A stretch of 64,000 nucleotides of DNA from a virus (Duplodnaviria; Caudoviricetes), in the IMG/VR virus record IMGVR_UViG_2602041658_000005, positions 15,174-79,173 of that record; one strand, written 5' to 3'. This document shows positions 1 through 25,259 of this stretch, piece after piece (the stretch's first letter is position 1; each line of letters begins with the position of its first letter). The position numbers and the translations under genes are program-made. The notes beneath the pieces were generated by a model that saw nothing but the letters and a program-made list of their open reading frames with translations, searched no databases and was not told where the DNA came from.

Positions 1-1
1 T

Positions 2-100
2 GCGAAGAAAGTGGATGAGAAATACTATCTGTCGGATAAGGCACTTGAGTATTTCAATAGAGTTGATAAAGACAAAACGCATGGTCATAATTTCAAATAA
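2..100 (+). CDS. 3' end of the N-terminal part of a DNA (cytosine-5) methyltransferase, entering from the left edge
   Basis: Frame reads AKKVDEKYYLSDKALEYF...HGHNFK*; VDEKYYLS is typical of the start of the variable region in phage C5-MTases. Confidence 0.7.
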   Translation, partial: AKKVDEKYYLSDKALEYFNRVDKDKTHGHNFK

Positions 101-992
101 GGAGGGGTGGAGGGATAGCCTGTACCATAAGGTGCAAGGCAGGCAGCCGTGTAGATGACAATTTTGTAATAGATGAAAAATGAGATAATAGAAGCCGTCA
201 TCATACCGCAAGTAATGAGAGGGGGGGCAAGCCCAACAATAACGGCGAGTGTAAAGAATATGGGGTGTGCAAATCTTGTTTCGTTAGCGCATTTCCCCAT
301 TGCAGGAATTATAGAAATTTATGATAAAGAAGAATAAATCTTTGTTTGCCATGTTTGAGAAAGGGCTTGTTCCATTAGAGCCATACGTCTGCATAGATAC
401 TTACAATCAAAAGGTCATGAGAGATTGTTTCTGCACAATTCGCACGACCATAAGCAGTTCAAACTTACATTTCATAACAATAATGGAAGATGATTAAATT
501 TTTGAATCCTTACGAGACTTTCATTCCACAAAATAATGCACGTCATGTGTGTGGGCGAATAGAAGTTTGTAGAACTATCAAGGCGCAATACTATAAAGTA
601 GGAAAGGCTAATTTTATTAGGAAAGACGGATTGGGAGCGACAGCCGTAATAGAGGTAGAATTATAATTTGCTGTAAGTTTATGATAGAAGATGTTTTTGT
701 AATCAATGGCTATAAGAGAAATGACAAGGAGGTATCATCCACTATTCGTGGAGTATATGGTAAGTGTGGAGGTGGCAGTGTTTTTCTCAATACAGGACAT
801 GGGATAACGGGAATAGTAGAAGTGTATGAATCGGAATAAAAAAAAATAATTCAGTTGTTCAACATTCTACCACCATCTACGAATTTCCAGAACGGACAGA
901 GAGGCAGGGTTTACAGCGTGATGGGGGTAAGTCCTACCATTGATGCGATGCAGGGTGGAAATCTGCAACCGAAAATAGTAGTGATAGAGTGA
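95..992 (+). other. Tandem array of C5-MTase target-recognition-like mini-ORFs (~95-183, 173-337, 321-497, 490-666, 681-839, 826/846-992)
   Basis: Manual translation. Each module has a central T-I motif (CTIR, PTIT, CTIR, RTIK, STIR, PTID) and ends in a hydrophobic-acidic tail (VIDEK, IIEIYD, IMEDD, VIEVEL, IVEVYE, VVIE). Starts mostly overlap the previous stop. Confidence 0.7.
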
Positions 993-1657
993 TGAAATAT
1001 TTAGTATGTGCAAGTAGGGGGAGAAAAACCGACAATCCGAGTGAGCGAGGGAAGTCGCTCGGTAGATATAAACAAAGATTACAGGTTAATTTAAGAGAGG
1101 TATTAAACACGATAACGAGCATTCAGAAAGACTATTTGATGATGGAAATATATGAACCGATGTGCTTGTCTTTGTATCGGACGGACTATGGGAAAAAAGT
1201 TTGGAACGAATATGAGAAGAGACACAATATAAAAATGAATCGGAAAACTATGTTGTGTCTATTACCAAGGCACGATGGTCTATTTAGAACTATAACAACA
1301 TTACAAAGTGATATACAAATTATGGAATCAAGTAACAATAAAGGCAAGTTGATAACAGAAGAGGTGGCAGTGAAGTTAAAGCTACCGAAAGAGTATATTG
1401 GCAAATGTTTTAGGATAAGGAAACTGACACCAAGAGAGTGCTTTCGCCTTATGGACATGGAAGAAGAAAAAATAGACAAAGTGCTGAATGCCAAGAATGA
1501 GAAAGGACAGCAGCTTATATCCAATTCTCAACTTTACAAATTAGCTGGCAATAGCATAGTCGTGAGTTGTATGGAATATATGTTTAGGAACTTGTTTATT
1601 GGTGTTCCCGAAGATGAGAAAGGAAAACAAGAGCCAGTGCAATTAAAATTATTTTAG
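992..1657 (+). CDS. C-terminal part of the C5-MTase: two fused TRD-like modules plus motifs IX-X
   Basis: NTITSIQKD and RTITTLQSD modules; RIRKLTPRECFRLM (motif IX); QLYKLAGNSIVV (motif X). Confidence 0.9.
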   Translation: MKYLVCASRGRKTDNPSERGKSLGRYKQRLQVNLREVLNTITSIQKDYLMMEIYEPMCLSLYRTDYGKKVWNEYEKRHNIKMNRKTMLCLLPRHDGLFRTITTLQSDIQIMESSNNKGKLITEEVAVKLKLPKEYIGKCFRIRKLTPRECFRLMDMEEEKIDKVLNAKNEKGQQLISNSQLYKLAGNSIVVSCMEYMFRNLFIGVPEDEKGKQEPVQLKLF

Positions 1658-1786
1658 ATGAAATACTTAGGAAGCAAGCGCAGAATAGCGAAAGACATTT
1701 TGCCTATCATTCTTGATGGAATGAGAGAGGGAGATTATTTCATAGACGCCTTTTGCGGTGGTTGTAATCTGTTGGATAATAAATAA
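1658..1786 (+). pseudogene. Truncated N-terminus of a Dam/D12-class adenine methyltransferase
   Basis: MKYLGSKRRIAKDILPII...FIDAFCGGCNLLDNK* contains YxGSK and the motif I DxFxGG, then stops after 42 aa. Confidence 0.8.
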
Positions 1787-1797
1787 ACTTTACTCAA

Positions 1798-2490
1798 ATG
1801 AAAGAGATTTTTACTATTAATTCAAAAAGGTGGCTTTCTTTAAGGAATTACGAAGGAGAGGTATGGAAGCCTGTTGTTGGATATGAAAATTGCTACGAAG
1901 TAAGTAATTTTGGTAGAATTAAAAGTATAGCACGTTTTGTAAAATGTAAAGATGGCAAAATTCAGCGATACAATGAAAAAATACTTCGTTTATGGATAGC
2001 AAAATTAGGCTACGCATCAATAACGCTTGAACATTATGGAGAAACGAGGAAAGTTGGAGCGCACAGGATAGTTGCAGAGGCTTTTCTCCCAAACCCAAAA
2101 GGATTACCGCAAGTTAATCACAAAGACGAAAATCCTACAAATAATAAATTAAACAACTTAGAATGGTGCACGGCAAAATACAATTTGACTTACGGAAGCA
2201 GGTTACAACGATTACACCTATCAACGATAAATAATCCGAAAACCTCAAAGATAGTCCAGCAGTATTCATTTGATGGAGAGTTGATTTGCGAATATCCTTC
2301 ATTGATGGAGACAAGAAGACTTTTCGGAGGGCATGTAGGTGAAGTCTGTAATCATAAATACTACAGTACATTAGGTTATTTTTGGCTGTATAAAGGTATT
2401 AGTTTTGAAGAATGGCAGAAAAAGCATGAAGAAATTTTCAGAGAAAGAAGGCGTAATAAGCCAAGAAGAATTATAACTACCAAACGATAA
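1798..2490 (+). CDS. NUMOD4-HNH-NUMOD1 homing endonuclease
   Basis: EVWKPVVGYENCYEVSNFGRIKS (NUMOD4); HRIVAEAF...VNHKDENPTNN...NLEW (HNH); VQQYSFDG (NUMOD1). Confidence 0.92.
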   Translation: MKEIFTINSKRWLSLRNYEGEVWKPVVGYENCYEVSNFGRIKSIARFVKCKDGKIQRYNEKILRLWIAKLGYASITLEHYGETRKVGAHRIVAEAFLPNPKGLPQVNHKDENPTNNKLNNLEWCTAKYNLTYGSRLQRLHLSTINNPKTSKIVQQYSFDGELICEYPSLMETRRLFGGHVGEVCNHKYYSTLGYFWLYKGISFEEWQKKHEEIFRERRRNKPRRIITTKR

Positions 2491-2527
2491 CGAAGAAACC
2501 TATTGAAAAACTATTTATGCTATAATT

Positions 2528-2653
2528 ATGGAAAACAAACTTGACAGGGTCGCTTCTGAGTGGACAAAGAAACACCCGAAAGCGACACTTGAAGAAGCGT
2601 TCAAGGCGGGATATTTAAGGCATGTTGAAGCGTGGGTAAAGAACGAAAGATAA
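2528..2653 (+). CDS. Small hypothetical protein (41 aa)
   Basis: MENKLDRVASEW...EEAFKAGY; fills the gap before the next gene. Confidence 0.55.
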   Translation: MENKLDRVASEWTKKHPKATLEEAFKAGYLRHVEAWVKNER

Positions 2654-2655
2654 GA

Positions 2656-3429
2656 ATGATAGAAGAGAACAAACTATATCACGGTGATTGCTTTCGCCTT
2701 ATGCAGGACATTCCAGACAAGTCTATTGACATGATACTATCCGACCCACCCTACGCTTGTCTTAACAAATCTAATAAGGATGCAAGTTGGGACAAGGAGA
2801 TAGACCTACAAGAGTTGTGGAAACAGTATGAGCGCATTATAAAAGACAATGGAGCAATATTATTGTTTGGACAAGGCTTGTTTGCAGGCAAGCTCATTAT
2901 GAGTAACCCGAAGCTATATAGATACGACCTTGTGTGGGACAAGGTTAGGAAGGTGGGCTTTCTCAACGCGAAGAGAATGCCGTTAAGACAGCATGAGCAA
3001 ATACTTGTATTCTATAAAAAACTGCCTACATACAATCCTCAAATGGTGAAGTGCGAGCCGCACCAACGCAACCACAGCAGAGGAAGCGGCAACGAAACAA
3101 ATAGAACCTATGGGAATTATGGTAAGTCGGAAAGGATTATTACAGACGAGAAATATCCAAGCAGCATTATAACGTTTCCGAAAGGTAGTAAGGACGATTG
3201 GCTACACCCTACGGCAAAGCCAATAGAATTGCTTAGGTACCTTATTCGCACCTATTCTAACGAGGGCGATTTGGTGTTAGACAACTTTGCAGGTAGCGGC
3301 TCAACGTGTGTAGCTGCCATAAAGGAAAACCGTAAGTTTATCGGAATGGAAATGGAATACCACTTCTTTAAGGTGGCAGATGAGAGAATAAAAAACGAAT
3401 TGAGAGAACCAAAATTATTTTATAAATAA
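2656..3429 (+). CDS. Beta-class N6A/N4C DNA methyltransferase
   Basis: DPPY, HPTAKP and VLDNFAGSGST motifs. Confidence 0.93.
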   Translation: MIEENKLYHGDCFRLMQDIPDKSIDMILSDPPYACLNKSNKDASWDKEIDLQELWKQYERIIKDNGAILLFGQGLFAGKLIMSNPKLYRYDLVWDKVRKVGFLNAKRMPLRQHEQILVFYKKLPTYNPQMVKCEPHQRNHSRGSGNETNRTYGNYGKSERIITDEKYPSSIITFPKGSKDDWLHPTAKPIELLRYLIRTYSNEGDLVLDNFAGSGSTCVAAIKENRKFIGMEMEYHFFKVADERIKNELREPKLFYK

Positions 3430-14656: not shown

Positions 14657-15529
14657 TTATATATTTTCTTTATCAAAGTAAGTGTTTAGAATATCACCAA
14701 TCATTTTACTTGCCTCTTCCATTTTTAAACCATCTTCCATATAAAGGATTTGTTTTGCTAAATCTTCTATTTCGTTAATCTCATCGAAATTATCTTTAAA
14801 AGAAGGTAACGCTTCTATCTTCATGATTAATGCGCTGATTTGGGTAGTAACGAATATAAATTTTACGCGATATTCGTAAATATCAGCTAAATCTACGGCA
14901 TACTGCATAGATGCATCATCTGAAGACAATTCTATCGTACTTCCATTCTGGCTTATTTTAAAAGGTTTTATACCATATTTTTTTTCATATTCTAAAGCTG
15001 AATTTGTCGAAGCGAAATCTATTAATAGTTGGAAAAATATTCGTATATCGAACGCATCAAGAGTGTTTTTTAAAACTTCATCTGTATCGTCCGGACAAAG
15101 ACAATGACGCATAGTATATGGTTCAAGAACACTATTTGGTATATTCTCTAAAACAAGGCTACCACCAGCATCTTTGTCGGTAGGTAAGATGTGTCCTTTC
15201 TTTATTCTTTCTAACCTTTCATTTTCTGCAAAAGTACGCCATGTCGAAGGGTAATACTCTGATGCATAAAAGAGGATATTTCTCAAAAAAGGTAAAATAG
15301 CGGATACATATTCATGAAACAACAAAGAATTTACATACATCTTGTTTTTCTTGTCATCTTTCGTTTCGATAAAAGACTTTGGCTTTGAATACGCGTACAT
15401 AGGGAAAGCCAATTTAACACCTTTGTTAAAAAACTCGCATAGCTCTTCATCGCCTTTTAATAAATGAAAATTTTTATCCATGTTATAATTTGTTTTTTTT
15501 AATCTTAATATATACGCTTTTAGACGCAT
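14657..15529 (-). CDS. Hypothetical protein (start may be at 15481)
   Basis: Long ORF. Confidence 0.65.
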   Translation of the reverse strand: MRLKAYILRLKKTNYNMDKNFHLLKGDEELCEFFNKGVKLAFPMYAYSKPKSFIETKDDKKNKMYVNSLLFHEYVSAILPFLRNILFYASEYYPSTWRTFAENERLERIKKGHILPTDKDAGGSLVLENIPNSVLEPYTMRHCLCPDDTDEVLKNTLDAFDIRIFFQLLIDFASTNSALEYEKKYGIKPFKISQNGSTIELSSDDASMQYAVDLADIYEYRVKFIFVTTQISALIMKIEALPSFKDNFDEINEIEDLAKQILYMEDGLKMEEASKMIGDILNTYFDKENI

Positions 15530-24326: not shown

Positions 24327-25259
24327 CTGTAATTAAGGCAATAAGAGAGTCAGGAGGGAGGCGATTCTTAATAGTTTGAGAGTGTAAGAGAGGAGGTTAT
24401 ATTTTCGTTGTAAGTTGTTGTTTATCAATAAGATAGGTTATACAAATAATGTATCTTTTTTTTTTAGTAGTAAGGGGGGGGTAACCCCTTAATGAAAGCA
24501 AAGAGTCCCTATTTGATTACCGGTCTAAATTTTTTATTTTTTTTTTTTGTTTTTGGGGTTGTCTATTGTTTAGGGTATTGGTTTAGTATTGGTTTAGTGT
24601 GTGTTAAGGGTGCATTGAGTGTATATGTAGAGCGTATGTGTAGAGTGTTAAAATGACGTTAAAAAAGTCATGTTTTTATGTTTTTGGGTCTTGTATGGAC
24701 TATTTTGTCATTTTATTTGACAATTTATTTTTATTTTTCGAGATTTTTGTTTAATCTTTTCAAAGTCTTTATTATAAAGGGTATCTTTGCATTGTTAGTG
24801 GACATATTTCTTAATTATTACCTATTTTAGGGTATCTATATAGGATATTTATATATATATTATATATATTTACTAATAAACGCGAGGAGATGAGTTTTAG
24901 AGAGTGTATTTTAGCGAAATTAGCGCGATATAGCGAAAAAATAGCGATAGATAAGAGAATGTGCCAAAATGGATAGAAAGTGCTTTAAAACGCACGTAAA
25001 ACAGATTTGAGCAAACATAATGTATGCGAGTAAGGAAGTTGTTTGTATTTTTAAGGTAAAGGTTTGCTGCTGTTTTTTTGCGAAAGATAGGTATTGTAGC
25101 TATCTTAGCAAACAGAGAAAGAGAAAAAAGGAAAAGAAAAAAAATAAAAAAAGAAAAGGAAATAAGAGAAAGACGAAAGACGAGTGAGAGAGAGAAAAAA
25201 AGGACGAGAAAGAAACCGTAAGAGGGAAACAAGGAATTGGATAGAGATAAGGAGAGTTT

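Follow-up and report, generated by a model that had tools for sequence, protein, structure and literature searches.

A phage cytosine-5 methyltransferase in apparent cassette form, with target-recognition units encoded between two halves of a split core

Why does a phage gene for a DNA cytosine-5 methyltransferase (C5-MTase) fall into a chain of short reading frames, with most of the breaks lying where one target-recognition domain (TRD) gives way to the next? The question is raised by the first 1,657 nucleotides (nt) of a stretch of Caudoviricetes DNA, IMG/VR virus record IMGVR_UViG_2602041658_000005, positions 15,174 to 79,173. The whole stretch of 64,000 nt is referred to here as the window. 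A first reading of these letters alone (the sequence-only reading) had proposed that the TRDs are plug-in modules, made as separate translationally coupled peptides or else joined by recoding or by recombination at a junction motif. The comparison of the window with its relatives favors, with a probability of roughly 0.6, an array of TRD cassettes, mini-genes that would be translated separately, vary in phase individually in many relatives, and serve a split core of the M.AquI kind. The window corresponds to G000:C1 15174-79173 and begins within the gene for the N-terminal part of the enzyme (N-part); positions given as L001 follow the numbering of the parent locus. The features of the array, with putative mini-genes numbered in order and lengths in amino acids (aa), are as follows.

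1 to 100, + strand: 3' end of the C5-MTase N-part gene (motifs I, IV, VI and VIII; PF00145).
91 to 183, + strand: unit 1 (..GGGIACTIRCKAGSRVDDNFVIDEK), in the -1 frame relative to the N-part, with no ATG, GTG or TTG.
173 to 337, + strand: TRD mini-gene 2, 54 aa (..SPTITAS..GIIEIYDKEE), whose ATGA start overlaps the end of unit 1; currently in frame.
221 to 227, + strand: G7 tract within mini-gene 2, currently in frame.
321 to 497, + strand: TRD mini-gene 3, 58 aa (..CTIRTT..FITIMEDD), with its ATGA start inside GAAATTTATGA.
490 to 666, + strand: TRD mini-gene 4, 58 aa (..CRTIKAQYYK..ATAVIEVEL), with a stop shared by stand-alone homologues.
681 to 839, + strand: TRD mini-gene 5, 52 aa (..SSTIRGVYGK..GIVEVYESE), with its ATGA start after a 14-nt spacer.
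826 to 849, + strand: ATGA junction of unit 6, which opens only a 7-codon open reading frame (ORF), MNRNKKK.
838 to 846, + strand: A9 homopolymer run between the junction ATG at 826 and unit 6.
840 to 992, + strand: unit 6 (..IIQLFN..GRVYSVMGVSPTID..PKIVVIE), of the canonical C5-MTase TRD type, with a TTG at 855 and no in-frame ATG.
992 to 1657, + strand: gene for the C-terminal part (C-part), 221 aa from ATG 992, with a TGATG overlap at 990-994, two fused TRDs and motifs IX-X.

The catalytic core is encoded in two halves. The whole N-part ORF (L001 857-1600 = G000:C1 14530-15273) comprises 247 aa and ends in ...HGHNFK, with its stop at window positions 98-100. Its coding sequence (L001 857-1597) matched PF00145 at profile positions 5-222 of 324 (E 1.4e-54), and motifs I (FSGYDS), IV (SPCQDFS), VI (ENV) and VIII (QNRER) are legible in it. 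The C-part matched the same family at profile positions 193-322 (E 8e-07) and carries motif IX (RIRKLTPRE) at 1412-1438 and motif X (GNSIVV) at 1547-1564. Its two fused TRDs occupy about 992-1150 and 1151-1340, and a relic junction, GAAATATATGA, lies between them at 1145-1155. Motifs IX and X (RxLTxxE, GNS) are encoded on a different polypeptide from motifs I-VIII, and the locus fits the M.AquI type of division, with motifs I-VIII in one ORF and a portion of the variable region together with motifs IX-X in another. The window array consists of seven separate reading frames, unlike the all-in-one polypeptide of SPR-type enzymes. An independent assembly from the probable source run, at a depth of 192, was identical over L001 800-3200.

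Eight recognition units were aligned, six of them small and two within the C-part, and all share an invariant T, an invariant I and a tail E. The sequence-only reading had placed six frame-switching units with a T-I core between the core halves and two more fused in the last ORF, and the ORF and alignment check found them there. As in SPR-type enzymes the TRDs stand in tandem, and the eight units are homologous to the TRDs of continuous multi-TRD relatives. A Pfam scan of the six small units (units 1-5 and the TTG-started unit 6) matched no family, and in a PHROGs scan four of five small units were without a match; unit 6 gave a weak match to phrog_26324 (DNA methyltransferase). An AlphaFold2 model of a continuous homologue (L009, 401 aa, 32-row alignment) had a confident core, while residues 197-323, the variable region, had a predicted local distance difference test (pLDDT) score below 50. 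Module 4 modeled alone (35-row alignment) reached a mean pLDDT of 45.6 with no secondary structure.

What the junctions between units have in common is a start codon surrounded by stops. All seven junction ATGs in the window (173, 321, 490, 681, 826, 992 and the internal 1152) read ATGA and so overlap a TGA. The ATGs at 173, 321, 490 and 826 lie in the +1 frame and a TGATG overlap lies at 990-994, exactly as the sequence-only reading had counted them. Stops in all three frames fall within about 20 nt at the window junctions. In the frame of the junction ATG itself a stop lies 3-21 nt upstream at five of the seven junctions, and the frame of the upstream module is closed either 5-14 nt downstream of the ATG or just upstream of it. 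Consequently every frame is shut at each junction and one is opened again. The geometry otherwise varies: neighbors overlap by 1 to 46 nt or are separated by spacers of 14 nt, and the frame shift is +1, -1 or 0.

A strict form of the junction motif, GARNTNTATGA, occurs four times in the 64 kb, three of them in the array on the + strand. It is not over-represented window-wide (shuffle mean 1.9; 12 of 100 shuffles reach 4) and is notable only for its clustering in the array, where four of the seven junctions do not fit it. In split relatives the DNA context of the junctions is close to GTAAT(T/A)GAR.T.TATGA; automatic ORF tiling, which at times chose wrong segments, was used for junction contexts only.

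Two of the six breaks in the window have no usable ATG. Unit 1 shares with the N-part only a single stretch that is open in both frames, 91-97, and is fused in frame to the N-part in L005, L132 and the continuous homologues. By comparison with the in-frame homologues L005 and L132, the break looks like ordinary damage, the loss of one base in a T run (T4 to T3). A -1 slippery site at this position (TTTCAAA) was considered and rejected, since it does not have the form X XXY YYZ and the T4-to-T3 loss explains the break. Unit 6 lies in the same frame as unit 5, behind the TAA of unit 5, and the ATG at 826 is in another frame; it opens only seven codons because the A9 run shifts the frame.

Relatives of the locus were collected by N-part scans, which gave 41 viral, 42 genome and 80 metagenome loci, or 164 loci including L001. 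Both core halves were present in 100 of these; 63 had no C-part in reach, many of them at contig ends, and one had no N-part. Among the 100 loci with both halves, 44 were split and 56 continuous, and after identical arrays were removed 87 distinct loci remained, 41 split and 46 continuous. The continuous relatives are genuine multi-TRD enzymes with the same TRD types in frame, up to about eight TRDs (709 aa, L023). The split relatives are chains of short ORFs with tails such as ..VIEVYE, each overlapped by the next ATG. The closest genome matches were mostly metagenome-assembled genomes of Bacteroidales. A blastn search of the locus against a phage genome collection returned six weak partial matches to the core and no related array. 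The sequence-only reading had held that the breaks fall mostly at module boundaries with fresh start codons, and would have been undermined had its homologues been single ORFs and the breaks private to this phage. The boundary breaks proved to recur in many diverged relatives, so that they are not private; what that reading had missed are the two window breaks without a usable ATG and the 46 continuous homologues, which make up about half of the distinct loci.

Close relatives differ in which modules they carry. Over the N-part and modules 1-2, four loci (L085, L089, L094 and L142) share 91-93% identity with the window, and all four depart from it at L001 1824/1825, directly past the ATGA of the module 3 junction. 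Four different successors follow this point: module 5 directly in L094, a different module in L085, a module with a new head in L089, and a hybrid of two modules in L142. The same joints recur in contigs of two runs: the X3 contig joins 1824 to 2179 and skips the sequence between, the X2 contig has 1825 to 2226 replaced by 177 letters, and both contigs carry insertions at 2329; run X4 covered the locus by short pieces only. Mini-gene 3 is absent from L094, L085, L089, L142 and X3. A further pair, L099 and L101, is 98.9% identical and differs by a 423-nt block. The expectation that module number and order vary while breakpoints stay at the junctions was borne out, and the gain, loss and order of modules in L085, L089, L094, L142, X2 and X3 fit recombination at the junction motif.

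One feature, missed by the sequence-only reading, goes beyond plug-in modularity: in the wider family nearly all mini-genes contain a poly-G tract whose length sets their frame, which points to phase variation specificity by specificity. The 41 distinct split arrays contained 81 G or C runs of at least seven bases in 48,743 bp (1.66 per kb), against 20 in 236,135 bp of their flanks and none in 29,142 bp of the 46 continuous arrays, so that long G tracts are about 20-fold enriched in split arrays. By composition, 75 of the 81 runs were G and six were C (14 G7, 33 G8, 23 G9, 4 G10, 1 G11, 1 C7 and 5 C8). The tracts sit at Gly-Gly sites that immediately precede or follow the T-(I/L) core. In the continuous arrays there are 93 Gly-Gly pairs, none of them encoded by GGGGGG. 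Under a frame heuristic, 41 of the 81 tracts were in frame, 36 were out of frame and four were unclear. The flanks of split loci also held more such runs than those of continuous loci (20 in 236 kb vs. 4 in 321 kb); other genes of split-locus phages may carry such tracts, or the array limits may have been drawn too tight.

Two of the properties of phasevarions were found here: a repeat tract within coding sequence that sets the frame (in the window, G7 at 221-227 and A9 at 838-846), and tract length that varies between near-identical genomes (L012/L132, L007/L008, L032/L033 and the window clade). L012 and L132 are 99.7% identical over 971 bp with a single G as the sole indel; with G8 the N-part continues in one frame into module 1, and with G9 this fusion is lost. 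L007 (G8) has the RTIKAQYY module in frame, in L008 (G7) the module is out of frame, and L032 and L033 differ by GG in one tract (G10 vs. G8). The tract stretch of module 2 measures 11, 8, 9, 7 and 7 nt in the window, L085, L089, L094 and L142, respectively, which gives three phases among five genomes. At the unit 6 junction the ATG is in frame with unit 6 in L094 and L085, where the A run is shorter or interrupted, and likewise in X3, which has two fewer A in the A9 run.

The module cores are under purifying selection. The median ratio of nonsynonymous to synonymous substitution rates (dN/dS) was 0.12 for the module 2 core (20 of 21 pairs below 0.5), 0.26 for module 4 (18 of 20), 0.28 for module 5 (8 of 10) and 0.37 for module 6 (136 of 180). 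Neutral evolution of the modules, which would have spoken against the plug-in proposal, was accordingly not seen. These values come from gap-free core alignments of sets drawn from split and continuous loci alike; pairs that were saturated or had a dS no higher than 0.05 were excluded, as were sequences with gaps or an internal stop. Module 3, with two sequences only, gave no estimate. The module 2 set consists apparently almost entirely of split arrays (L100 is unclassified), and its core is conserved even in relatives with an out-of-phase tract.

Module 4 also has homologues that stand alone. Compared with candidate small proteins of 45-98 aa, it matched 40 of 41 at E 1e-3 or below, in 40 clusters, and the same C-terminal ..AVIE.E(I/L) stop was found in most of those aligned. 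This RTIKAQYY family carries two unrelated N-terminal heads, MIN.KNRK..LNLYSY.. or MKK.KAINIC.. (L007 4405-4614, L008 2920-3070 and proteins P0009-P0034). Both heads seem to come from a single stretch of DNA, read in two frames upstream of the poly-G tract, and with such a two-frame head two of the three tract phases could still give the TRD core.

The favored explanation can be set out as a mechanism. The locus would encode a prophage-borne multispecific C5-MTase in cassette form, with a catalytic core split like that of M.AquI and each TRD between the core genes forming its own mini-gene of 45-65 codons. With an ATGA and stops in three frames at each junction, a ribosome would end in any frame and restart on the next module, which amounts to translational coupling with a frame reset. 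A frameshift in one module then need not silence the downstream modules or the C-part. The junctions would double as points at which modules are gained, lost or replaced between related phages. In most split relatives a poly-G (rarely poly-C) tract of 7-11 bases lies at a Gly-Gly site in each mini-gene, and a change of its length by slipped-strand mispairing would turn that single module on or off. The window form would be reduced to two tracts, G7, which leaves module 2 in frame, and A9, which uncouples module 6 from its ATG. The likely use would be stochastic, combinatorial variation of the sites methylated by the phage or lysogen, a hedge in which shelter from Type II restriction is weighed against vulnerability to methyl-dependent (Type IV) restriction. 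In PMC12707154, methylation that protects against one restriction enzyme is described as able to expose DNA to methyl-dependent enzymes, and this trade-off makes a hedge plausible. We infer the translation of the mini-genes, the action in trans of free TRD peptides with the split core, and the selective benefit.

Several observations weigh against this explanation. On the N-part tree of 69 rows, for which 18 of the 87 distinct loci had been removed by filtering on motif I and on the length of the core, 13 changes between split and continuous are required, at least five of them forced; shuffled states averaged 21 and none of 500 shuffles was as low as 13, and neither state was indicated as ancestral. 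Either the split class is a mixture of cassette arrays and ordinary broken genes, or recombination of the arrays is independent of the core. The start-less break between the N-part and unit 1 is fixed in all five members of the window clade, L043 has an in-frame stop in a conserved linker, and in L089 module 6 is truncated at a place away from any long run. In L053 the array of mini-genes (2300-3113) is followed by no C-part with motifs IX-X, and the last module continues in frame into an unrelated ORF. The window array itself has one G tract and one A run, and modules 3-5 have none. The split class is partly defined by tract-caused frameshifts, so that its association with tracts (before duplicate removal, at least one G or C run of seven or more bases in 32 of 44 split loci and in none of 56 continuous loci) is not fully independent. 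Tract lengths were compared between assembled contigs, and the 36 of 77 scorable tracts that are out of frame could also be read as decay.

Decay is indeed one of three other explanations. A once-continuous multispecific C5-MTase in a defective prophage may have become a pseudogene, with the small ORFs as functionless leftovers. This would account for the missing start codon of unit 1 and the missing in-frame ATG of unit 6, for the in-frame stop of L043 and the lost C-part of L053, and for about half of the tracts being out of frame. It would also suit the 46 distinct homologues that are intact single ORFs and the split loci that adjoin continuous ones on the tree, such as L144 beside L147. 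It would leave unexplained that ATGA breaks at module boundaries recur in many diverged loci, that cores at dN/dS 0.12-0.37 are still open, and that the stand-alone homologues form 40 clusters with the same stop in most of those aligned. Moreover, unselected long tracts should shrink, and here G tracts are enriched about 20-fold in split arrays and absent from intact ones. The regular junction of ATGA and stops, its recurrence, the selection on the cores and the tract enrichment together argue against simple decay, which we regard as improbable. A silent cassette store, in which only the N-part and the C-part with its fused TRDs are active and the other modules form an untranslated reservoir moved by junction recombination into the C-part or between phages, draws on the exchange data. 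Relatives that are 91-93% identical differ in module content with breakpoints at junctions, L142 has a hybrid of two modules, and the C-part retains the relic junction at 1145-1155 between its fused TRDs. Such a store would need neither an ATG at each junction nor stops in all frames, nor switch tracts within ORFs, and the strong purifying selection on the cores does not suit it. It seems unlikely, and it is compatible with the cassette array of translated mini-genes.

Recoding, raised in the sequence-only reading, fared worst; it would yield one long multispecific polypeptide by +1 ribosomal frameshifting at the junctions or by transcriptional slippage on A or G runs. It is suggested by the four junction ATGs in the +1 frame, by the A9 and G7 runs, and by the continuous homologues, which indicate that the fused protein is viable. 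The conserved element, though, is an ATG(A) with stops in every frame and not a slippery or stall site. The variable geometry of the junctions and the stop in the +1 frame 3-21 nt upstream of the ATG at five of seven window junctions are also contrary to it, and six successive frameshifts would presumably leave a negligible yield. Recoding is therefore considered very unlikely. A bolder form of the cassette explanation is held tentatively, at somewhat less than even odds: a phage-borne combinatorial phasevarion, in which the split core is served in trans by TRD peptides of 45-65 residues, each the product of a translationally coupled mini-gene and switched independently by its own tract, and the junction doubles as a recombination site.

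The array belongs to a methyltransferase island consisting of the C5 enzyme, a D12 stub and a DPPY-type gene. Directly after the C-part, window 1658-1786 holds 42 N-terminal codons from the gene for a D12 (Dam-type) adenine methyltransferase, a stub with a weak match to PF02086 (19.7 bits; cutoff 22). It is followed at 1798-2490 by an ORF of 230 aa for a homing-type endonuclease with NUMOD4 and HNH_3 domains. L094 has an intact D12 gene (245 aa) and lacks an HNH ORF, so the endonuclease gene has replaced most of the D12 gene in the window. A DPPY-type N4/N6 DNA methyltransferase gene lies at 2632-3429 (phrog_67, E 4.7e-75), and L094 has two such genes in tandem. The N-part ORF of L094 (2184-3983, 599 aa) contains about 350 extra residues inside motif IV (..SSP[C...VHN]CQDFS), an insert that has the look of an intein at the catalytic Cys. 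Across the 64 kb of the window only two G or C runs of at least seven bases occur, the G7 of module 2 at 221-227 and a G8 at 24474-24481. The latter lies in 24456-24548, flanked by T10 and T12 runs, within a 1.5-kb stretch without an ORF of at least 60 aa, which could represent the end of a prophage or a regulatory region.

Multispecific C5-MTases of Bacillus phages (SPR, phi3T, rho11s and H2) carry tandem TRDs, each built on a T-(L/I/V) core, in the stretch from motif VIII to motif IX, and these serve one catalytic core. The present locus resembles them as a phage-borne set of tandem TRDs, presumably directed against restriction, and its 46 continuous homologues share their layout. It differs in that its TRDs do not form one polypeptide, that an ATGA start and a stop frame every one of them, with a separate tract for each in relatives, and that the associated hosts are mainly Bacteroidales, to judge by record titles. 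M.AquI and M.EcoHK31I function as two polypeptides (PMC3404938), and fragments of monomeric C5-MTases (M.SssI and others) complement each other. The present locus is like them, with motifs I-VIII apart from motifs IX-X plus variable-region sequence and the split inside the variable region. M.AquI and M.EcoHK31I consist of two parts with a single specificity, whereas here there are up to six extra TRD-only ORFs without a catalytic motif.

In phasevarions (PMC12707154, PMC7394358), simple sequence repeats act as switches of methyltransferases of Type I and Type III. The arrays are like them in having a homopolymer within coding sequence whose length varies between near-identical genomes and leaves the frame open or shut. 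They are unlike them in that the systems described there switch a whole mod or hsdS gene, while here the tracts belong one by one to the several TRD mini-genes of a single C5 enzyme, carried by a phage. Type I hsdS shufflons (PMC7394358) share with the locus a specificity that is encoded apart from catalysis and varied by recombination among duplicated modules. In Type I systems, half-genes of a large S subunit of an N6A enzyme are inverted or recombined, in contrast to the direct, same-strand C5 mini-genes found here. No invertase or inverted repeats were noticed at the locus, where no dedicated inverted-repeat search was made. Multispecific, split and repeat-driven phase-variable methyltransferases are each already known separately. 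Full-text literature searches returned no description of the three combined, nor of per-TRD mini-genes or per-TRD tracts.

If the mini-genes work as proposed, the DNA-recognition domain of a C5-MTase could be supplied as a small subunit of its own, much in the way that HsdS is supplied to Type I enzymes. The arrangement would then be a simple natural scaffold for swapping or adding methylation specificities. Should each module also be switched independently, n modules would let a phage population try out as many as 2^n methylation patterns, and temperate phages of gut and rumen Bacteroidales would bet-hedge their epigenetic disguise module by module. This would matter for the host range of phages, for their arms race with Type II and Type IV restriction, and for the heterogeneity of lysogen methylomes.

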